Origin: Escherichia phage SDYTW1-F1-2-2_3
Sequence record: OR296290.1
Length of the DNA: 64,000 nucleotides
Reading direction: 5' to 3' (one strand)
Shown: positions 4,279-40,329 of the stretch, piece by piece
Layout: every line of letters begins with the position of its first letter
Numbering within the stretch: the first letter of the stretch is position 1
Program-made: the position numbers and the translations under genes
The notes under the pieces: model-generated
Told to the model about the DNA's origin: nothing
The model's database searches: none
The model's input: the letters and a program-made list of their open reading frames with translations, nothing else

Positions 4279-5577
4279 TTAGTTATTTGTTTCCATGTCA
4301 AAAGAGATTCCACGACCCGCTTCATCGGCAAACCGAACTGTACGGGTTTGAGGCTCTAATACTTCAGGGTTGTTAGCAACAAACCGATCAGCGAGATTGC
4401 GGCTGACGGTCTCAGCTAATTCACCATGAGAAGGGACGTCAAGATCACCAACAGCGAAACCCTGACCAGAGAACTGGTGACGGCTGACAGTCAAACCATT
4501 TGATTGACCATTAGAACGTCTAGACAACCACCGCTCAAATGAATCGCCAGTAACACCAAGAGCTTCTTCAAAAGATGTTCTACGAGTAGAGCTTAGATTT
4601 CGTGCTTCGTTTGCTCGACGTCTTGCAGGGGCTACAAACACCCCTTCAACTGCATTGTGTCGGTTAGGTTCATCTTCCCGACCAAGGAGATCTCCTCCTG
4701 TATTGGTTGTTAAGTTTGTTAACCCTTCAGACCAATACGCACGAATCTGACTAGAGCCATTAACACTTGACATTAACTGAATCTCTTCGTAAGGGATTCC
4801 AAAGAATCGACTCATGTCTTGGTCAACACAATATTGAGGACTTGCTGTGTCGCCAATAAGAGATACTTGACCTTGACTATTAACCAGATCCCTGACCATT
4901 TGAGGTATAGGTTGTTGCCGAGCATGTGCCATATAATGAAAAGCAACTCCCGGGGTTTGGAACCTTAACACTTGTGAGTTAGGCCACTTCTTGTGGACAT
5001 ATTTAATCTCTCGAGCAGTCACAACCACTGGAATTGGAGAAGTCATAGCCAAGTATCCATGAACGGTCATGAATAGCTTATCAAGAGTCATAGCACCACG
5101 ACACATCATAGGAAAATTACCCAATACCTCTTCAATAGAAGTAGGATAATTAAACATGAATTGGATACGAACCCCATTCCACTGAAACTCAATGATATCA
5201 GTGAATGTTAATTGAGAAGTTCCTGTGTATGGCTCATCTGTAGCTTCAGCAAGAAGGGATGAATACTCAATATCTTGTGATTCAAGCCATTCCTTCACGT
5301 TACTTTCAATCTCTCTTCCAAGAGCTTGCCAACGGTCAGTTGGGATGAACATGTTTTGAGTTCTTGGTGTTTGTCCTCTGACAATAAAGATATCAATGTC
5401 ATGTGGAGCTGTGTTATTAAGCACAGCATCACGAACAGCCCCACCAGTAATGAGGGGACAGATACCGTCTGGAACCAAGTTGTTGTTAATCAACTGTTCA
5501 ATGAAATGACGACCAACAGTAATATCAGGTTGTTGAGCAACCTTATCTTCAATTCGGTTAATCGGAATAACAATCAT
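4279..5577 (-). CDS. Pol-beta superfamily nucleotidyltransferase (CCA-adding / poly(A) polymerase-like head)
   Basis: Start set to ATG 5577 (MIVIPIN...), 1 nt after exonuclease stop. Motif GGAVRDAVLNNTAPHDIDIF matches the GGxVRD...DxD NTase signature. Confidence 0.6.
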   Translation of the reverse strand: MIVIPINRIEDKVAQQPDITVGRHFIEQLINNNLVPDGICPLITGGAVRDAVLNNTAPHDIDIFIVRGQTPRTQNMFIPTDRWQALGREIESNVKEWLESQDIEYSSLLAEATDEPYTGTSQLTFTDIIEFQWNGVRIQFMFNYPTSIEEVLGNFPMMCRGAMTLDKLFMTVHGYLAMTSPIPVVVTAREIKYVHKKWPNSQVLRFQTPGVAFHYMAHARQQPIPQMVRDLVNSQGQVSLIGDTASPQYCVDQDMSRFFGIPYEEIQLMSSVNGSSQIRAYWSEGLTNLTTNTGGDLLGREDEPNRHNAVEGVFVAPARRRANEARNLSSTRRTSFEEALGVTGDSFERWLSRRSNGQSNGLTVSRHQFSGQGFAVGDLDVPSHGELAETVSRNLADRFVANNPEVLEPQTRTVRFADEAGRGISFDMETNN

Positions 5578-26427: not shown

Positions 26428-27336
26428 TTATGCTGCCTGACGTGCCGCCATAATCTCAGCTGCCTTGCGCAATACTTCTTCTTCTTCTGCTTTCGCAGCT
26501 TGTTCGGTACGGGTAGCAACCGTTGAAGAGATACGACCGCGCAGACTTTCTAACTTCTCCTGCATAGCTGCAACAACCTTTTCCATTTCATCAGCGTATG
26601 AATCAAGTGATTCTAATTCCTTGCTTGATGCGTTCATCAGATAATCGTCAGAGATCGCTACCGTTGAAGCCGTGACTTTCTTGATGAGTGAATCAAAGGA
26701 CTTTTTAACTTTCCCCACTTCTTCACTCAAGGCAATAGTATTATCACTGGTAGCGCCATTACGCTCATCAGCCAACAATTTGGCTTCGATACGGATTGCA
26801 TTCAAGCGTTCAACTAAAGCGTAAATATCTTGGTTAAAATCTTCCTTGTTTTTCGCCGGGATTTGCAGATGGGCAGCCACGTTGTCATTGCAACCTTTGT
26901 AAAAATTAGGGTTATCGACTTCAATTTCACGGCCTAAAGCAAAGTTTTCGAAAGCATTTGACCAGCGAGCGCGGTTTTGTTCCATTTTGGCCTTAATTTG
27001 CGCTTCTTTCGCATCTTCTTTCGCTTTCGCTTCACCTTCCAGATTAATCCACTTCTTACGACCATTCGCCGCATCAGTGTTAAACTTGATAGGAGTTAAG
27101 AAAGTGATTGCAGTGGCGATCACATCCATATCGCGGAAACGTTCGGTTAACAGGAAATCAACCGCCGACTGCAATACATCTAACTTCTTGCCGTTGCTAC
27201 GGAAGTGCTGCAAGTGCCCTAACAGAAAATTAGAAACATCTTGTTTGATCGCCGCGTTATTACTACGAATGTTGTTAGCCAGTGCGTTAAAACCAGATTC
27301 TTTTACCAGATTAAAAATTTTAGCCATGATATTCAC
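26428..27336 (-). CDS. hypothetical coiled-coil protein (302 aa); first gene of leftward block
   Basis: Long ORF adjacent to the central control region; terminator hairpin immediately downstream. Confidence 0.5.
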   Translation of the reverse strand: MNIMAKIFNLVKESGFNALANNIRSNNAAIKQDVSNFLLGHLQHFRSNGKKLDVLQSAVDFLLTERFRDMDVIATAITFLTPIKFNTDAANGRKKWINLEGEAKAKEDAKEAQIKAKMEQNRARWSNAFENFALGREIEVDNPNFYKGCNDNVAAHLQIPAKNKEDFNQDIYALVERLNAIRIEAKLLADERNGATSDNTIALSEEVGKVKKSFDSLIKKVTASTVAISDDYLMNASSKELESLDSYADEMEKVVAAMQEKLESLRGRISSTVATRTEQAAKAEEEEVLRKAAEIMAARQAA

Positions 27337-28148
27337 CTTTCAATTGTAAGGGCACTATGCCCCGCTCTCTATGAGCTTTTTAAGTCGCCATTGACTTATC
27401 GATAATCACTCATTGTTAAGTAATTATTGATAAGCGGGGCGGTCTTGTCAGGAGTTAACCTTGCCGCCCCCTTATCCGTGATGTTTCATCTGGTATCTTT
27501 AATTAGTCGCTATAAACGAAGCCGACCTGATAGCGATGATCAATCATCACAATAAGGCTATGCGTCCGACTCTATTTAATTACATTACTGTAACCGTCGG
27601 CAATATCGTTTACTTTGCTTTCGCTCCCGCCTATCCTTTTATATCAGCTCTCTTTCGCTAGTCATCGCCCACTATGGGATACTATTGCGAAAGAGTCACT
27701 AACCGCCTACTATTCCGGCGTTTTATATCTTTCAGCAGGTTTACTACATAAACCGGCTATGTACTTTCATCGTAAGACGAATCTCAAGCCGTTCACATCG
27801 TAAACGTTCGCACTAAACCTTATTGTTAAATAGCAATTTGCCATTCTTTAACCATCCCCCACCGCCCTCAATTGGGCGTTAATTCGTCGGACTCGTCTGC
27901 CCTGATAAACTTCTTCACTGTAGCACCTTGTTAGCGATGGCTGCCGCTACCCTTAACCGTGGGCGATTAGCTTAAGCCGTTGCGTGTACTCAATGTATCC
28001 GCTTATCAGTGGCGACTTTTCCAGTTAAGGGATTGTAAAGCTGTTTACCCTGATATTTTAGGGAGCCTTACACCGTTTTATCTGGTATGTTTTCCGATGG
28101 TTATTATCATCAAACATATGCAACCGATATATGGGAACGTTTAAATTA

Positions 28149-28906
28149 TTAAAGAGCGGTAAATCTGTCAGTGTGCTTTCTCACACTACGCAACTGTAAG
28201 CCGTTGTTTCGCTTTTCACTGAAGCGGTGATTTGCCTAGTGAGTACGCTCATTATGGACCATGATGTTTTCGCTGTCAACCGCTTTTTTAATCTTTTTCG
28301 TCGTTCCCGCTATTGGGAGGATATATCAACCAGCTTTATTTGATTGAAGATTAAGCGGTGAGGCTTAACTCATGATTCACATTGTTAAAGAGCGTTTAGC
28401 CTTTTATAGTGTCTGCTAATCACTGCATCATTAAAGGCTTACTTATTCATTAACGGGGCGCCTAAGCCCGAACTAATCGCCGCACTGTGTGCCACCTTTC
28501 CCGCGATACGTTGATTTGGGAACTAGTTAACGTTGTTTTGTTAACTTGTGGTTAGTATGAACTACCTTAACCACGTTTGCAACCTCTTTTTTATCATCTT
28601 CTTTTATTCTTTTCCCTTATCTCGCGTGAGTCTATGCGAAAGGGCAAGATGATAAGTTTTTAAAGAGCGGGATGCTTTAAGTCATCGCTGACTATGCTCA
28701 CTATATATCAGGCTATTTTCGGTGTCAATACTCTTTTTAAGAATATTTTCACTTTCTAGCCTGATTTTTAAAGAGCGGGGCAATTTCTTGCCTTGTATGT
28801 TTTTCATCGTACCCGATGAATTGAAGTATACGCCAACCAGTGAGTAATGCAATAGGGTAGGGCAAATTATTTTAAACTTTTTCACTATAGGAAGATAAAA
28901 GAGCGG
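28149..28906 (+). repeat. array of five direct repeats with core TTAAAGAGCGG
   Basis: Copies at 28149, 28385, 28660, 28768, 28896; copies 3 and 4 share the 15-mer TTTTTAAAGAGCGGG. Confidence 0.6.
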
Positions 28907-29112
28907 GCGCACGTGATACATCAAAGGAAACGGCTTGTAAAGCGATATTTAGCGGCCTAAAACGCACTGTAGCGAGCTAAAAGGGAGTAAGGTATACAAT
29001 CACCTTAGAAAAGAAAAAAGCCTCATAGTGAGGCTTATAGGAAGGATTTAAAGCATCAGATAGATTATGACCATAGGCATGACCACGGCACAATAAAGGA
29101 GAAAGATTAAGC

Positions 29113-29487
29113 CTATGGATTTATACACTGACCGTTACCGGATTCCATTTCATTCATAGACTCATCAAAGAGCGTCAACGATGAGCGCATCAAGTGATCA
29201 ACCGTAATTTGTTTGCCAGTGGTTTCATTTACCAGTTGAATAGTTTTATCATATGATTGTACATGTTCGAAATCATTTACATGTAAAATAATAACCTTCG
29301 GTGACTTTTTACCAGTATCATAGTTTTCTACAATATAGGTGCACTGTAAACCGTCAACCGTAGCAGGGGAAAACGTTGCAGCCTTAACGCTACCCATAGC
29401 CGACAGCAGGACACCTAACAGGAGAACAACCAGAAAGAAGCCTACAAATACTTTCACTACGAATTTAATAATACCCATGATAATCAA
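29113..29487 (-). CDS. membrane/secreted protein (124 aa)
   Basis: N-terminal hydrophobic segment FVVKVFVGFFLVVLLLGVLLSAMG. Confidence 0.45.
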   Translation of the reverse strand: MIIMGIIKFVVKVFVGFFLVVLLLGVLLSAMGSVKAATFSPATVDGLQCTYIVENYDTGKKSPKVIILHVNDFEHVQSYDKTIQLVNETTGKQITVDHLMRSSLTLFDESMNEMESGNGQCINP

Positions 29488-29580
29488 CCTTTAGTTAGAG
29501 AACGTAAGAATAAAGCATATCAGCGACGAATAACGCCACTGTAACAACGAATAAGCACCGCCAAAAACAATCATGAATCA

Positions 29581-29847
29581 TTAGTTGCCTTTACCTTTAA
29601 ATAACGCTACTCTAAGCAGTTCGATCTCTTCCAGTGAAAGAAGAATCCGACGTTGCGCCAAATACTGACCAGCTAGAAGTGAATCCATGATGAGAGCAAC
29701 AGCGGGAAAACTCACCGTTTTAATATTATCGCCGACAATAAACAAGATTAAACACTTGTCAGAGTCATCCGTATATGAGAAATCGATCTCACCGTAATTG
29801 TGGGTTGGGATAGTAAAGCTGTATTCTTTATTCATTTTTGTCACCAC
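29581..29847 (-). CDS. hypothetical protein (88 aa)
   Basis: Track ORF in central island. Confidence 0.4.
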   Translation of the reverse strand: MVTKMNKEYSFTIPTHNYGEIDFSYTDDSDKCLILFIVGDNIKTVSFPAVALIMDSLLAGQYLAQRRILLSLEEIELLRVALFKGKGN

Positions 29848-30092
29848 TTAGGCAAATCACAATCAAGAAGACCAGCAAGCGACAAATCACCGTCAATGTA
29901 GATCGACTTGAAATCATCACGGGTAATTTCAAAATTAGCAAAGGCTAACCAATCCTTAAGAGGCTGAAATTCCATCCTGCAAAAAGTGATAACAGGCAAG
30001 ATTATCTGACCGTCAAGTGTATTAAACATGATAGAGCTTCCACCAACAAAACAAGAAAAACCGTTAGATAATTTAACTTCTTTAATAGCCAT
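29841..30092 (-). CDS. hypothetical protein (83 aa)
   Basis: Track ORF in central island. Confidence 0.4.
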   Translation of the reverse strand: MAIKEVKLSNGFSCFVGGSSIMFNTLDGQIILPVITFCRMEFQPLKDWLAFANFEITRDDFKSIYIDGDLSLAGLLDCDLPKW

Positions 30093-30118
30093 TTTTTACA
30101 CTCCCAAAAATAGATTAT

Positions 30119-30610
30119 TTACTTACTGGCCTTGATGCAGTTGGCTAGATTAACGTGAACTGTATAAACAGCATTATCAGTGTTATTGTAAACCGTGGTG
30201 GCAAGTATTGATTCATTCATCGGGCCATAACTGACCAGATTCGTGACAGCTTTCGCATGGCTGTAACGTTGTACAGTGCCATACGTCACCATATCCGCAT
30301 CATTATCAGTGCGCTTAAGTACCAGATCATTGTTAGGCTGATTGTCCAGTGTTTTGGTACTAACGACCAGACCATTACGAGAAACGTTACTAAATTTAAC
30401 TTTTAAAACTACTTGATTAGTGTCACTATCCGCACCATTGCAAATCATCCAACCCTTACTAACAGAATTAGCGAAGACACTAGCGGCATCAGTTGCAGGG
30501 GCAGGACTAGCAACAGCCTTATCAGAAAGAGATGTGACCAGTGCACTAACACCGATAGCTGCAACCAGTGCATAGCTTGCCAGATTTACTACCTGCATTA
30601 CCTTAGCCAT
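30119..30610 (-). CDS. secreted protein with signal peptide (163 aa)
   Basis: MAKVMQVVNLASYALVAAIGVSALVTSLS signal-like N-terminus. Confidence 0.5.
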   Translation of the reverse strand: MAKVMQVVNLASYALVAAIGVSALVTSLSDKAVASPAPATDAASVFANSVSKGWMICNGADSDTNQVVLKVKFSNVSRNGLVVSTKTLDNQPNNDLVLKRTDNDADMVTYGTVQRYSHAKAVTNLVSYGPMNESILATTVYNNTDNAVYTVHVNLANCIKASK

Positions 30611-30913
30611 TTGTTAACCCTCGTTAATATGTATTTAGTTTTTATGTTTCACAAGATAGCACATATTTCTACTTCATACGTAGGGTCATTGCTCAGTTGA
30701 CCACTTCACTGACTCGATAGTGTCCCAGCTTTCACCAGTCAATCGCAGAGTCCTTATCTTTAAACATTCTCCACTACTTAGGACGATTATCCTTCATGGA
30801 GCTTACTACCATCTAGCTACTTTGCATCACTGCTTCGCTTCGATGAATACAATTTACTACTTCTTAATAAAGAAAGCAAGTCCTACGGGTAAAATATTTC
30901 TACTATCTCTATA

Positions 30914-31327
30914 GGACGGGGAACATACAACCGCAGAACAGACCACGGGGAAACATAGCAAGATAGTGCGGTAATAATATACCACTTAAATAATTGTATA
31001 ACTCAAACATCAAAGACCATTCGCTACGCTCATGCACGCTGAAAAAGAAAGTAATAAAAGAAATAATAACATACATCAATCATTATCCACTTAATTAATA
31101 CATACATCATTATTGCACTCATAATCATCACTATTGAAACTATTTACATTCAAACTATGGGGAACGTGGGCTATTACTTATGGGTATTATATCGCCTTAA
31201 ACTATTGGTACAGTGAGGGACTAGCCTTTCTCTCACTCAGTAAAGGGGAACTAAATAAACGGGTAGGTAATGAATAGGATGGTATACACGGGGAAAGAAT
31301 AACGGGGAGTAGGCACGGGGAAAGGTT
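30914..31327 (+). repeat. cluster of six ACGGGGAA-core direct repeats
   Basis: Copies at 30914, 30943, 31158 (TGGGGAAC variant), 31289, 31302, 31315; CACGGGGAAAG exact at 31288 and 31314. Confidence 0.55.
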
Positions 31328-31517
31328 GGAACGTTGATAGGGATGTAAAGGCATTGCCAATAACCATTTTTTATTTGAGGACTCCCCCTTTTTAACAATT
31401 CGCCGCGGGGTGCCTAGCCCCACTCGGTCAAATCAGAATTTTAAACAGATATATACATCTTTATTTTTTATAAATCTGTATTTTAAACTCTTATATATAA
31501 GGTTAAGAGAGAACTTA

Positions 31518-31679
31518 ATGAATCTAATTAAAGTATTTAGACGGATGAAGTGTAAGCACAATTACTATCTTCTTCGTAAAGCTTACGGGGATGAAAGAAT
31601 ACATGGTCTCTACCTATCAACATGGAAGTGTAAGGAATGTGGTAAGTTGAGATTCAGTACATGGGTGGATAGGCCTTAA
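31518..31679 (+). CDS. small zinc-ribbon-like protein (53 aa)
   Basis: Track ORF trimmed to ATG 31518 (AGAGAGAA SD); CKHN...CKECG. Confidence 0.4.
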   Translation: MNLIKVFRRMKCKHNYYLLRKAYGDERIHGLYLSTWKCKECGKLRFSTWVDRP

Positions 31680-31687
31680 CGTGACAT

Positions 31688-31772
31688 GGCCTTTATGACA
31701 TGAGGGTGCCTTTATGAAGTCCCCTTTACATCAGAGATTATGGGTAGGCCTTTAGATGATAGTGCCTTTATG
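31688..31772 (+). repeat. three GTGCCTTTATG-type direct repeats
   Basis: Copies at 31688-31697, 31707-31716, 31763-31772, plus variant GGCCTTTAGATG at 31748. Confidence 0.45.
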
Positions 31773-33420: not shown

Positions 33421-34962
33421 ATGTCATTAGATAAACAAATTTATGAAGCTCTAACTGGTAACAATCTTAGTGTAGAGGAAAAGAAAGCACTATTGAATAT
33501 GTTGAAAGAGCGTGACCAATGGAGGAAGTATAATAGGATTTTGTCTTTCAAGGCGTATGACTTCCAAAAGAAATTTTATGCAGCAGGATTGAAGCATCGC
33601 TTTAGATTCTTGTGTGCAGCGAACCGTGTTGGTAAATCTTATAGCGAGGCATACGAGTTTGCTTGTCATGTCACAGGTCGCTACCCAACTTGGTGGACAG
33701 GATATAAATTTAAAAGACCTATCTTAGCATGGGCAGTTGGTATTACAGGGGATTCCACAAGGAAAGTATTGCAAAAGGAATTGTTTGGTACACCTATCGG
33801 AAAGGATACAAACTTATTAGGGACAGGTGTCATTCCTCGTGATGCTATCGTCATTGATACGATAGAACGAGATGGTAACAAACTTCAAATCGTACAAATC
33901 AAACATCAAAATGAGAGAGGAGAGTTTGACGGTTTAAGTACATTAGAATTCCGTTCAACCCAACAGGGTGAACACACATTGATGGGTGCAACAGTTGACT
34001 ACATTTGGTTAGACGAAGAAGACCCATACGAGTCTATGGCTATATTCGCACAGTGCGTCACACGTACACTCACAACTAAAGGTCTAGTTACAATTACAGC
34101 TACACCAGAGAACGGTTTAACTGAACTGGTAGATAAATTTATGAAAGGTGAAGGGGATGAGAACACAGGTTCTCTATATTTCCAGAATGCTTCTTGGTGG
34201 GATGCTCATGCAGACCTAGGTGGACACATCACTGACCAAGATATAAAAGATATGACTGAAGGTATTCCAGCGTGGCAGTTAGAGATGCGTTCAAAAGGTA
34301 TGCCATTGTTAGGAAGTGGTTTGATTTATGATGTATCGGATGACACAATTAAATGTGAACCATTCGAAATTCCTGATACGTGGAAACGTGTCTGTGCAAT
34401 TGATATTGGTATTGATCACCCAACTGCTGCTGTTTGGACAGCTTACGACGCAAACACGGATACTATCTATGTTTACGACTCATATAAAGAAGGTGGCTTT
34501 ACTCCAGTGTATCATGCTCCAGCTATTAATGGTCGTGGTCAGTGGATTCCTGTCATCCTACCGCATGATGCGGACAATACTGAGAAAGGTAGTGGCTCAT
34601 CTGTTGCTCAATTCTATAAGAATGCAGGAGTTAACGTACAGAGTGAGACCTTCTACAACAAAATTGGAATGGATGGTAAAAAGAACTTCTTTGTAGAACC
34701 GGGAATCACAGATATCCGAGAAAGAATGATGAGTGGACGCTTTAAAGTCTTTAACACAGCCGCTAACGCTAAGCTATTCGAAGAGAAAGCTAGATATCAC
34801 CGTAAGGTTGGTAAGATTATTAAAGAACATGATGACTTAATGGATGCAATGCGCTATTCAGCTTGCTCTGTTACACATCGTGGTCGCTCTAAGCATGATG
34901 TTAGCTACGGAAGCGCTTCTTTGTATGAGGCAAACGTAAGCAGATGGAATCAGAGCTACTAA
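33421..34962 (+). CDS. terminase large subunit
   Basis: Walker A-like CAANRVGKS, Walker B IWLDEED, C-terminal nuclease-like region; followed by terminator. Confidence 0.85.
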   Translation: MSLDKQIYEALTGNNLSVEEKKALLNMLKERDQWRKYNRILSFKAYDFQKKFYAAGLKHRFRFLCAANRVGKSYSEAYEFACHVTGRYPTWWTGYKFKRPILAWAVGITGDSTRKVLQKELFGTPIGKDTNLLGTGVIPRDAIVIDTIERDGNKLQIVQIKHQNERGEFDGLSTLEFRSTQQGEHTLMGATVDYIWLDEEDPYESMAIFAQCVTRTLTTKGLVTITATPENGLTELVDKFMKGEGDENTGSLYFQNASWWDAHADLGGHITDQDIKDMTEGIPAWQLEMRSKGMPLLGSGLIYDVSDDTIKCEPFEIPDTWKRVCAIDIGIDHPTAAVWTAYDANTDTIYVYDSYKEGGFTPVYHAPAINGRGQWIPVILPHDADNTEKGSGSSVAQFYKNAGVNVQSETFYNKIGMDGKKNFFVEPGITDIRERMMSGRFKVFNTAANAKLFEEKARYHRKVGKIIKEHDDLMDAMRYSACSVTHRGRSKHDVSYGSASLYEANVSRWNQSY

Positions 34963-38638: not shown

Positions 38639-39700
38639 ATGGCTAATCCAACTTTATTTGTATCGTATGACCAGAATGGTAAAAAACTTTCTTTTGCTAA
38701 CTGGATTTCTGTTCTGTCCCCTCAGGATACTCCGTTCGTATCTATGACCGGTAAAGAGTCTATCAACCAGACTATCTTTAGCTGGCAGACCGATGCACTG
38801 GCAAGCGTTGATGGTAATAACGCACACGTCGAAGGCTCTCGTGCTGAAGACGGCGAAATGAAACCGACTGTTATCAAGTCTAACGTTACTCAGATTCTGC
38901 GTAAGGTTGTTCGTGTTTCTGACACTGCTAACACCACCGCTAACTACGGTCGTGGTCGTGAACTGATGTATCAGCTGGAGAAGAAAGGTAAAGAGATCAA
39001 GCGTGACCTCGAGAAAATCCTTCTGTCCGGTCAGGCTCGTACCGACGTTTTGGCTGACCAGTATCTGACTAACTCCGCAGCCGATCCGACTCAGATTGGT
39101 AAGAACGACACCCATGCAGCTCGTAAGACTGGTGCATTCCAGTTCCTGTGTGCTCACGGCGGTCTGACTGGTGGCGTTGTTGACAAAACCAAGAATGGTC
39201 CTGCTGACCCAGATACCGGTGCTGTAACTGTTAAAGTTGCACAGAACGCTTCTAACCCGGCTACTAACATCGGCTTCGATGAAGCAGATATCTTTGATAT
39301 GACTCTGCAACTGTACACCGCTGGTTCTGAAGCAGATATCATCATGATTAACCCGGCTCATGCTAAGATCTTCGCTGGCCTGCAAGAAAATACTCAGGGT
39401 TCACGTAAGCGTATCTTTGAGAACACCAAGCAGTTCATCTACGAAGTTAACAGCATCACTGACCCGCTGGGCCAGAGCTACAAAATCATCGTTAACCGTT
39501 GGATGCCTACTGATGCAGTTTACTTCTTCCGTAGCGCTGACTGGACCCAGATGGTTCTGCGTGCTCCGAAACGTACTGAACTGGCAAAAGATGGTTCTTA
39601 CGAGAAGTGGATGATTGAGATGGAAGTTGGTCTGCGTCACCGCAACCCGTATGCTTCCGGTGTTCTGTTCACTGCTGCGGGAAAGGCAGTAGCGGCGTAA
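38639..39700 (+). CDS. major capsid protein
   Basis: 353 aa after scaffold, strong GGAG SD, codon usage typical of a highly expressed gene; terminator after the downstream Ig ORF. Confidence 0.7.
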   Translation: MANPTLFVSYDQNGKKLSFANWISVLSPQDTPFVSMTGKESINQTIFSWQTDALASVDGNNAHVEGSRAEDGEMKPTVIKSNVTQILRKVVRVSDTANTTANYGRGRELMYQLEKKGKEIKRDLEKILLSGQARTDVLADQYLTNSAADPTQIGKNDTHAARKTGAFQFLCAHGGLTGGVVDKTKNGPADPDTGAVTVKVAQNASNPATNIGFDEADIFDMTLQLYTAGSEADIIMINPAHAKIFAGLQENTQGSRKRIFENTKQFIYEVNSITDPLGQSYKIIVNRWMPTDAVYFFRSADWTQMVLRAPKRTELAKDGSYEKWMIEMEVGLRHRNPYASGVLFTAAGKAVAA

Positions 39701-40227
39701 CAGTAGATACCATAACTGTTAGTCCTTCGTCGGTTGCAAGCCTTCCGACGGGGGCTACTCAGCAGTTTACAGCTACAGCACAAATGAGTGATAGCTCCAC
39801 ATCAACAACTGGATTTGTTTGGTCCGTTGAGGGTGGTGGGGCTATTTCTGTTTCTGGACTGTACACTGCACCGAGTGCGTCGCAAGAAACCCCGATTACA
39901 GTGAAAGCTACTAAAGGTGGTAAATCCGGTACATCTACGATCTCAGCTATTGCTGACCCTGAACCTACCCTTGTTAGCCGAGGTCCGATTTCAGGGAAGG
40001 TGGGTGGATCAACAACCGCATTCTCTACTATGTTTACAGCAACAAACTCTACCGGAAGTGACTATACTTTTGAGGTAACTCCTCCGGAAGCGGGAACTGT
40101 TAGTGCAGCTGGTCTTTTGACTCTTGCTGATACTGCTATGGGTGCAGTCTCTGTTGCAGCTACACACGAGACTAAACCTCTTGTAACAGCCACTTGTGAA
40201 TTCACAGGTGTAACACCTGCTGCTTAA
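39679..40227 (+). CDS. -1 frame Ig-like (Big_2) extension of capsid protein, reached by putative programmed frameshift
   Basis: Slippery heptamer G_GGA_AAG at 39679-39685; -1 frame open from there to 40227 and encodes VTVDTITVSPSSVASLPTGATQQFTATAQ... Ig-like repeats. Confidence 0.55.
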   Translation, partial: GKGSSGVTVDTITVSPSSVASLPTGATQQFTATAQMSDSSTSTTGFVWSVEGGGAISVSGLYTAPSASQETPITVKATKGGKSGTSTISAIADPEPTLVSRGPISGKVGGSTTAFSTMFTATNSTGSDYTFEVTPPEAGTVSAAGLLTLADTAMGAVSVAATHETKPLVTATCEFTGVTPAA

Positions 40228-40259: not shown

Positions 40260-40329
40260 CGTTTTAAGACCTATACAAGCTAGTGTGTAATGTATATTCT
40301 TTGTCTACATATAACAAGGAGGACAACCT

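Follow-up and report, generated by a model that had tools for sequence, protein, structure and literature searches.

What is the role of a 4-kb, mostly non-coding region at a strand switch in the genome of Escherichia phage SDYTW1-F1-2-2_3? The region spans 27337–31517 of the 64,000-nt stretch of sequence record OR296290.1 analysed here (the window, to which all coordinates refer): leftward open reading frames (ORFs) extend as far as a 302-amino-acid (aa) ORF at 26428–27336, and rightward ORFs resume at 31518. A first-pass annotation, made from the letters alone, had described two repeat-rich non-coding gaps enclosing an island of four genes, and a layout of this kind is present at about the positions it gave. 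It had described the left gap, 1.8 kb in length, as repeat-rich non-coding DNA, but this gap is more than filler: the constraint on it exceeds that on synonymous sites, and the gap encodes a large structured RNA that is preceded by boxA. Judged from its sequence, the window comes from a Kuravirus (phiEco32-like) phage whose genome was assembled in circularly permuted form, and the region marks where the two physical ends of that genome meet. Our reading, to which we assign a probability of about 0.7, is that the right-end part of this region is an early control region, in which a boxA-preceded RNA of 0.9 kb is made by Nus-assisted transcription and may engage a specific partner.

Conservation and coding potential of the spacer

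The 5.7 kb around the region share 88–92% nucleotide identity with about 100 phages of Escherichia and Shigella that belong to the phiEco32 group (Kuravirus and its sister Gordonclarkvirinae genera). The first-pass annotation had set its view of the region against that of a syntenic core with ordinary coding density; the region is indeed syntenic and conserved in these roughly 100 relatives, but ordinary coding density is not seen in it. We aligned the first early gene and the core of the adjoining spacer, taken from 21 phages in three genera. In the spacer core, of 1,058 nt, 56% of columns are invariant and indels are almost absent, and in the early gene invariant columns make up 19% of third codon positions, 73% of first positions and 82% of second positions.

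It is worth considering whether the spacer is a cryptic protein-coding region, with small or unconventional ORFs that annotation has missed. Some GenBank records do place hypothetical proteins in it, among them a “cathepsin L-like proteinase” in NJ01, and short open frames exist on the plus strand. However, the open frames vary in position and length among the relatives, the minus strand is closed, and the gap as a whole (27337–29112) holds short, non-conserved ORFs only, with no conserved open frame. Furthermore, substitutions in the spacer show no 3-nt periodicity (p = 0.84 overall and p > 0.13 in every 150-nt window), in contrast to the strong codon periodicity in the neighbouring early gene (p = 2e-36). 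We give a coding explanation next to no credence and regard the NJ01 entry, which lies inside the non-coding spacer, as a propagated mis-annotation.

A structured RNA on the minus strand

Constraint, covariation and folding all point to a conserved, structured non-coding RNA of about 0.9 kb at 27340–28244 on the minus strand, in the position of an early-operon leader. We regard the existence of this RNA as close to certain. Specifically, consensus folding in sliding windows gave alifold z-scores down to −13 relative to column-shuffled controls, with the stronger signal on the minus strand. The consensus structure, obtained with RNAalifold on an unguided MAFFT alignment of 21 sequences, contains 270 pairs, 74 of which have compensatory changes on both sides, and 99.2% of its 5,662 cells form standard pairs. 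Shuffled alignments contain 33.8 ± 3.1 compensatory pairs, with none of 500 shuffles reaching 74, and sliding the 3′ partners by 1–3 columns leaves 5–13 compensatory pairs and 33–49% pairing. The structure also holds in an independent check on eight genomes and metagenomic contigs outside the 21-sequence derivation set, where 98.7% of 2,144 cells are paired.

Folding of the single sequence agrees with the consensus. The minimum free energy (MFE) of the window's own RNA is −296 kcal/mol versus −230 ± 10 kcal/mol for shuffled sequences (z = −6.4); the complementary strand folds 37 kcal/mol more weakly, and an adjacent gene segment of 900 nt has z = +0.37. Because 11.7% of the paired cells are G·U, only the minus-strand transcript can form all of the helices. 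By an operational definition of a large structured non-coding RNA (longer than 500 nt, non-coding and with a multi-helix structure whose compensatory changes go beyond controls), the segment 27340–28244 belongs to that class. That it is expressed as RNA in the cell is suggested indirectly by the strand-specific G·U pairs and by the promoters upstream.

The RNA is also a mosaic. In the alignment of 27290–28400 with its relatives (alignment A4), EcoN5 carries a TH42-type leader and the contig OERV01000030 carries a PAS59-type 3′ segment, which suggests that recombination shuffles segments of the RNA while the pairing is kept.

Architecture of the RNA

The RNA, read 5′ to 3′ along the minus strand, starts with a leader (28244–28146) and continues with domain I (27847–28145), which is closed by an 11-bp helix. 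A linker hairpin (27828–27846) stands between this domain and domain II (27549–27826), which has nested closing helices, and a series of seven 3′ hairpins (27350–27548) finishes just before the ribosome-binding site (RBS) of the early gene. The two domains are connected by a 9-bp pairing between a loop of domain I (AUCGCCCAC, 27959–27967, minus strand) and a loop of domain II (GUGGGCGAU, 27664–27672, minus strand). This pairing is perfect in 31 of 31 copies, which comprise three haplotypes, and the only two variable positions covary. Positions predicted to be unpaired are invariant about as often as paired ones (54% versus 57%), and the loops and junctions contain many invariant runs of 9–18 nt. 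From this conservation of loops and junctions, where unpaired positions are selected as much as the helices are, and from the tertiary pairing between the domains, we infer that the RNA has a specific partner.

The RNA may in addition be closed as a whole by a helix between leader and trailer. Near its 3′ end lies an anti-boxA element (GCUCAUAGAGAGCGGGG, 27358–27375, minus strand), an inverted repeat complementary to boxA, which is paired with a boxA copy in both the alifold consensus and the single-sequence MFE structure, with the RNA enclosed between the two arms. The positions of this modelled helix are invariant and hence carry no covariation signal, and two sequences have a mismatch in it.

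These features bear on a simpler explanation, namely that the RNA is a passive structured leader with no partner, that is, a 5′ untranslated region that shields the early mRNA from Rho or RNases or tunes translation of the first gene. Such a leader would fit the contiguity of the RNA with the early gene, with no intrinsic terminator between them in our scan, as well as the way the last hairpins abut the RBS and the purine-rich composition of a transcript without rut-like windows. Yet two closed multi-helix domains within 900 nt, joined by a covarying inter-domain pairing, far exceed what insulation needs, and a passive leader sits poorly with invariance in more than half of the unpaired bases and with the long invariant runs in loops and junctions. 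We consider a purely passive leader an unlikely but serious alternative to an RNA with a partner.

Early promoters and the first early gene

The first-pass annotation had implied a control region here, and the left gap does contain early sigma-70 promoters, identified by a promoter scan and by their correspondence with those of phage SU10. Two tandem, near-consensus promoters, P1 and P2, face inward from the right end. P2 (TTGACA-17-CATAAT, 28251–28279, minus strand; 11/12 in the scan) has an A-rich, UP-like tract upstream and a predicted start near 28244; its hexamers are invariant in 29 genomes, and all 24 genomes compared for position have it at about 940 nt before the early gene. P1 (TTGACA-17-TATAGT, 28700–28728, minus strand; also 11/12) is a paralogue of P2 that differs in copy number and position among the relatives. 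P2 and P1 are the counterparts of the SU10 early promoters 73511 and 73996, respectively (Table S2, PMC4281155). In SU10, the last genes are described as having a sigma-70 promoter in front of them and a terminator behind, and the spacer that leads to the early genes as carrying three sigma-70 promoters of its own (PMC4281155). We consider it very probable that the RNA is transcribed early from P1 and P2.

A third candidate promoter within the RNA (27451–27423, CTGACA-17-AATAAT) was rejected, since its −35 element is CTGATA in other phages and its −10 element lies in a helix with compensatory changes. The promoter of the phage sigma factor (gp36), tAATGTAtA, has no exact copy in the region; exact copies occur in the window at 40288 and 57795.

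The first early gene (26428–27327, minus strand) encodes a protein of 299 aa that matches phrog_13018, a family of unknown function (8.5e-203). Its start is most likely the ATG at 27327 (MAKIF..., with MAK(I/V)FNL kept in the relatives) rather than the GTG at 27336. Upstream of P2 the spacer is modular. A variable module of 183 nt (28398–28580, minus strand), delimited by a BLAST segment map, occurs in part of the relatives, the others having about 35 nt in its place, and phages of the SU7, MLP3 and PAS59 types carry a 201-nt ORF in this part of the spacer (at about 4523–4729 in the sequences L012, L014 and L022).

boxA elements in the spacer

The gamma-proteobacterial consensus of boxA is GYTCTTTAANA (PMC5725501). 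This motif has six exact copies in the 64 kb, with 0.64 expected and none of 100 shuffles reaching six, and four of the exact copies are clustered on the minus, transcribed strand at 28147–28776. The critical C4 and T6 are kept in all four. The copy nearest the RNA body, boxA-1 (GCTCTTTAATA, 28147–28157, minus strand), is about 85 nt downstream of the predicted P2 start and lies within a near-invariant block of 28 nt (28139–28166). In most relatives it reads GCTCTTTAACAATTTA, a run of 16 nt identical to the E. coli rrnB leader as read from MG1655; the window's own copy differs from this run at 1 of the 16 positions. A boxB-like hairpin with three compensatory pairs (28169–28188) precedes boxA-1.

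The remaining copies, all on the minus strand, lie farther from the early gene. boxA-2 (GCTCTTTAACA, 28383–28393) is at the edge of the universally conserved block, where there is also a mosaic breakpoint. boxA-3 (GCTCTTTAAAA, 28658–28668) follows the P1 start by about 25 nt, with the hairpin AGUCA-GCGA-UGACU before it, and boxA-4, with the same sequence (GCTCTTTAAAA, 28766–28776), is directly preceded by the hairpin GGCAA-GAAA-UUGCC (28779–28792). A degenerate fifth copy is present at 28897–28906. The presence of hairpins with GNRA-like loops 5′ of boxA copies matches the boxB–boxA order of rrn leaders. The first-pass description of the gaps as repeat-rich is thus true as far as it went, the repeats being boxA in the left gap and ACGGGGA in the right one.

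This arrangement is shared among the relatives, which have 3–5 boxA copies each, at the homologous place and on the same strand. Copies at about −821 and about −1055 occur in 24 of 24 genomes, and in each of these genomes the P2 start is flanked by two boxA copies, one of them about 85 nt away on the downstream side and the other about 115 nt away on the upstream side; farther upstream, boxA–promoter–boxA modules vary in number among the 24. In the segment map, indel breakpoints coincide with boxA copies, consistent with repeat-mediated recombination. On the strength of sequence features such as these, the boxA copies are probably functional Nus sites. We found no paper in the literature that links boxA to phiEco32-like phages. 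The sequence TAAAGAGCGG might also be read as a motif of the plus strand, as an element within a sigma-70 spacer or as a linker for recombination; on the transcribed strand it reads ACCGCTCTTTAA(C/T)AATTTAAAC, and a minus-strand boxA explains it better.

Other boxA-related sequences occur in the neighbourhood. A further exact boxA (CCGCTCTTTAACA, 25372–25382) is on the opposite, plus strand inside the leftward early gene at 25162–25605; it is shared with some relatives (L003, L015 and L020) and could be an antisense signal or be kept as coding sequence. An invariant boxA-like sequence, GCTATTTAACA, in which C4 is replaced by A, lies at 27824–27834 on the minus strand, within the linker hairpin and the beginning of the helix that closes domain II.

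The combination of strong promoters with a long non-coding site also invites comparison with replication elements, in which the transcript might be a pre-primer like ColE1 RNA II or the origin transcripts of T7 and T4, or the DNA itself might be the origin. The promoters lie beside the genome end, the GC skew flips within 3 kb, and a long non-coding site would be typical of origins. However, the skew flip coincides with the change in gene orientation, and the presence of boxA points to a polymerase that elongates processively into the early operon, not to an arrested R-loop. In addition, there is no AT-rich unwinding element and there are no iterons inside 27340–28244, and the G·U strand asymmetry together with the compensatory changes indicates selection on RNA and not on duplex DNA. 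A replication element is, in our judgement, quite improbable.

A proposed mechanism and its precedents

We propose the following sequence of events. Host RNA polymerase would initiate at P1 and P2 soon after the DNA enters the cell, and boxA on the nascent RNA would recruit NusB and NusE (S10) along with the rest of the Nus factors, as happens at rrn leaders and in CRISPR arrays. Polymerase modified in this way would then resist Rho on the long, ribosome-free transcript and aid co-transcriptional folding of the RNA before reading through into the early operon. The RNA itself would be a functional particle, and not a passive spacer, and would bind to a partner from the host or the phage in the early phase of infection. 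In the cellular systems, the boxA/Nus complex allows RNA polymerase to finish long ribosome-free transcripts, and on rRNA it mainly aids correct folding (PMC5725501, PMC7665894).

Several observations weigh against this proposal. No rut-like C-rich windows occur in the RNA, which, like rRNA, may not need protection from Rho. Neither a terminator (in our scan) nor a mapped processing site lies between the RNA and the ATG, and a purely cis-acting leader fits this arrangement. boxA-2 and boxA-4 are upstream of the nearest promoter, so that an obvious transcript is lacking for part of the copies. The 29 sequences share ancestry, and a few events in the divergent TH42/PAS59 clade account for some of the covariation counts. 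Lastly, we found no Kuravirus RNA-seq in the literature; the start sites are predicted, and the early timing comes from secondary sources.

With these points in mind, we put the chance that the RNA has a function beyond that of a leader at about even. More tentatively, and with the odds against it, the RNA could be the founding member of a class of large phage RNAs that are made in the manner of rRNA (strong promoters, boxA/Nus-assisted folding and leader–trailer closure) and act in trans early in infection. If the RNA does act in trans, it might sequester or redirect a host machine, such as ribosomal or Nus proteins, RNA polymerase or an RNase, or it might blunt host defence. The phiEco32-like group has been found to be notably resistant to the defence systems tested (PMC11990801).

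It is informative to examine the locus in light of known systems. The closest parallels are with the E. coli rrn leader: near-consensus promoters in tandem, A-rich tracts upstream of them, a nascent RNA in which a hairpin comes before boxA, the 16-nt run that most of the relatives share with the rrnB boxA, a long, structured, untranslated product and possibly a leader–trailer pairing that encloses the RNA. In contrast to rrn, the body of the phage RNA has no sequence or Rfam similarity to rRNA, no boxC (UGUGUGGG) follows boxA, the transcript continues into protein-coding early genes, and a stretch of 760 nt holds several boxA copies, some lying on the upstream side of a promoter. The locus likewise resembles CRISPR arrays and the suhB leader in having an exact boxA between a promoter and a long, ribosome-free transcript, conserved at orthologous loci (PMC7665894, PMC5725501). 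It differs from these in being borne by a virulent phage and in preceding a folded RNA and not a repeat array.

Among phage systems, the N/nut system of lambdoid phages and the put sites of HK022 are precedents for what we propose here, an RNA signal in a phage early leader that reprograms host RNA polymerase, and the nut boxA core is shared. However, the hairpin is 5′ of boxA, in the rrn order, whereas in lambda nut it is 3′, and the arrangement is therefore not that of a lambda-type nut site. The boxA of lambda nut is a weakened version, whereas the phage copies here have the full rrn consensus. No N-like protein was seen among the neighbouring proteins in Pfam and PHROG scans, although no dedicated search for N homologues was made. 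The put RNAs are about 70 nt long and not 900 nt, and they have no match to the spacer RNA.

With regard to the RNA itself, the most comparable molecules are GOLLD, ROOL and OLE (PMC12286853), which share its size range of roughly 600–900 nt, its many covarying helices, its long-range tertiary pairing and an association with phages. Unlike them, the RNA described here matches no Rfam model and has a fixed place in the early-operon leader of a virulent coliphage, with boxA upstream.

Distribution and novelty

A search of the 64 kb with Rfam 15, covering group I and II introns, RNase P, tmRNA, 6S RNA, GOLLD, ROOL, OLE and rRNA, gave no match at the gathering threshold; the best sub-threshold hits had E values of at least 0.47 and bit scores far below threshold. 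No homologue of the RNA was present in 5,426 E. coli genomes, pattern and protein scans of IMG/VR returned the same five genomes only, and a metagenome scan found six loci. At the right ends of 7-11 and GAP52, relatives in the Grimontviridae, a spacer of this kind is absent, as are boxA copies and consensus promoters. The distribution of the RNA so far is confined to the Gordonclarkvirinae.

The papers on SU10 (PMC4281155), SU7 and the BASEL collection (PMC11990801) mention no non-coding RNA for the spacer, and in the 7-11 paper the word “noncoding” refers solely to regions that could contain promoters, with no spacer RNA described. The structured RNA and its boxA context therefore appear to be new, with the proviso that an earlier remark is possible in the primary phiEco32 papers (Savalia 2008, Pavlova 2012), which lie outside this comparison. 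The terminal repeat, the early promoters, the island and the overall layout are already known.

phiEco32-like phages are common and therapeutically used coliphages whose molecular biology has been little studied, and a 1.8-kb gap that is unannotated or mis-annotated in about 100 deposited genomes holds an RNA with covariation support and the size of a ribosomal domain. If our proposal is right, it offers a concrete case of a virulent phage that borrows the Nus-factor pathway of rrn operons with no N protein. It also places a large structured RNA in a tractable E. coli system, given that the BASEL phages Bas86–94 form plaques on K-12 once its O-antigen is restored; most of the other large RNAs that lack a known function come from organisms that are hard to grow.

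Genome ends and the layout of the region

The first-pass annotation had suggested that the region could hold the physical genome ends, and it does. A direct terminal repeat (DTR) of 193 bp lies at 31223–31415 (plus strand), present in the assembly as a single collapsed copy with CT|AGCC at both boundaries. Three GenBank records of relatives (Paul, KM01 and IME267) start at the position that corresponds to 31223, that of IMEP8 stops at the one that corresponds to 31415, and the DTR is annotated at exactly this place in Paul, 4E8 and YF01; an alignment of the relatives' ends with the window sets the same limits. These record ends, annotations and alignments indicate that the window is a circularised assembly in which the repeat has collapsed. 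The 193-bp size of the repeat and its internal T-run motif are already published for phiEco32 and SU10 (PMC4281155). The window has the motif as CCATTTTTTA-N10-CCCCCTTTTTA inside the DTR, at about 31364–31396, and its terminus is of the phiEco32 type, in which a 193-bp DTR carries, about 21 nt from its end, an internal motif resembling CCCTTTTTTA-N10-CCCTTTTTTA.

It follows that the divergent transcription described in the first pass has to be read differently. The change in gene orientation between 27336 and 31518 is real, and the sign of the GC skew flips near 31000, but the apparent divergence is an artefact of circularising a linear genome, in which the two gene sets are at opposite ends and each points inward. 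The gap–island–gap layout recurs in every relative examined. That the region is a collapsed end junction and not a pair of divergent promoters matters for the annotation and the engineering of phiEco32-like phages.

On the right-end side of the DTR, a non-coding stretch of about 600 nt (30611–31222) contains ACGGGGA repeats (30916 and 30945) and AT-rich repeats. The gap of which it is part (30611–31517) is ORF-poor, with 0.9 kb free of conserved ORFs. A promoter for the island should lie within 30611–31222, in keeping with the sigma-70 promoter that SU10 has about 650 nt in from the right end of its genome (PMC4281155); our scan of the window gave weak matches only for it. On the other side of the DTR is a left-end leader before the first rightward gene (31416–31517, plus strand), which contains a 26-nt direct repeat (31430–31455 and 31472–31497) and has a promoter annotated at the homologous place in 4E8. 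The gene for the large terminase subunit is located just rightward, at 33421–34962.

Five of the six copies of ACGGGGA in the 64 kb fall at 30916–31321, flanking or within the DTR, with three of them inside it; they may be packaging or end-processing signals. A CACGGGG core recurs in the DTRs of Paul, YF01 and 4E8. These repeats bear on a further explanation of the left gap, namely that it is conserved as a DNA-level signal for packaging or for arrest of ejection, or as single-strand hairpins, comparable with the injection-stop region of T5 or the hairpin promoters of N4. The spacer sits about 3–4 kb in from the presumed leading end and directly follows a small cassette that would be the first expressed, and in T5 the layout of first-step transfer resembles such a placement after the first-expressed genes near the leading end. 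However, closing helices that span about 280 nt and a pairing between domains 295 nt apart are unexpected for signals in duplex DNA, the G·U cells would be A·C mismatches on the other strand, and the ACGGGGA repeats near the DTR are better candidates for a packaging signal. A DNA-level role for the spacer is thus very improbable.

The genome end as a whole resembles that of T7, with a DTR that has defined cut sites, short repeats at or near the DTR and inward-facing tandem sigma-70 promoters near one end. The leading end of T7 carries the tandem strong promoters A1–A3 for host polymerase. It differs from T7 in that a gene cassette and a structured RNA of 0.9 kb sit before the main early operon. 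A T7-like mode of replication and packaging has been proposed for the phiEco32 group (PMC4281155), and phiEco32-like phages have a phage sigma factor in place of an RNA polymerase of their own (PMC8948821).

The four-gene island at the right end

The island (29113–30610, minus strand) has a fixed position in the genome. A presence/absence comparison found the cassette in every relative, with gene content that differs among them. Its four ORFs, all on the minus strand, encode proteins of 124 aa (29113–29487), 88 aa (29581–29847), 83 aa (29841–30092) and 163 aa (30119–30610). The signal-peptide or transmembrane N-termini that the first pass had seen in two of the four were confirmed by Kyte–Doolittle analysis: the 124-aa protein has a transmembrane or signal N-terminus (19-aa mean of 2.94) and the 163-aa protein a signal-like one (2.06), and the 88-aa and 83-aa proteins have no hydrophobic N-terminus. 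Pfam found no domain in any of the four. The PHROG and GenBank names “terminase” for the 124-aa membrane protein and “polymerase / DNA polymerase B region” for the 83-aa protein are artefacts, that is, mis-annotations that have been propagated. An intrinsic terminator found in the terminator scan, an 8-bp stem followed by TTTTTCTTTT (29018–29036, minus strand), closes the island unit, and the annotations of 4E8 and SU7 also show a terminator at the corresponding site. The first-pass annotation had noted that islands of this kind often hold morons or genes for superinfection exclusion or host interaction. Such a role may apply here: the island has a terminator, a weak promoter match only, two products with hydrophobic N-termini and a gene content that varies within a cassette that is always present.

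Some minor features of the window lie outside these elements. The first rightward ORF (31518–31679, plus strand) encodes 53 aa with a CxxH...CxxC pattern, matches phrog_7696 (unknown function) and is possibly a small zinc-ribbon protein. Four of the nine copies of GCCTTTA(TG) in the window are clustered at 31689–31770 (plus strand), between the first two rightward genes and just inside the left genome end. A tRNA-Arg gene (anticodon TCT) lies among the leftward genes at 21745–21821 (minus strand), as reported for other members of the phage group, and at 39001–40000 the local G+C content rises to 0.50, compared with about 0.42 elsewhere in the window.

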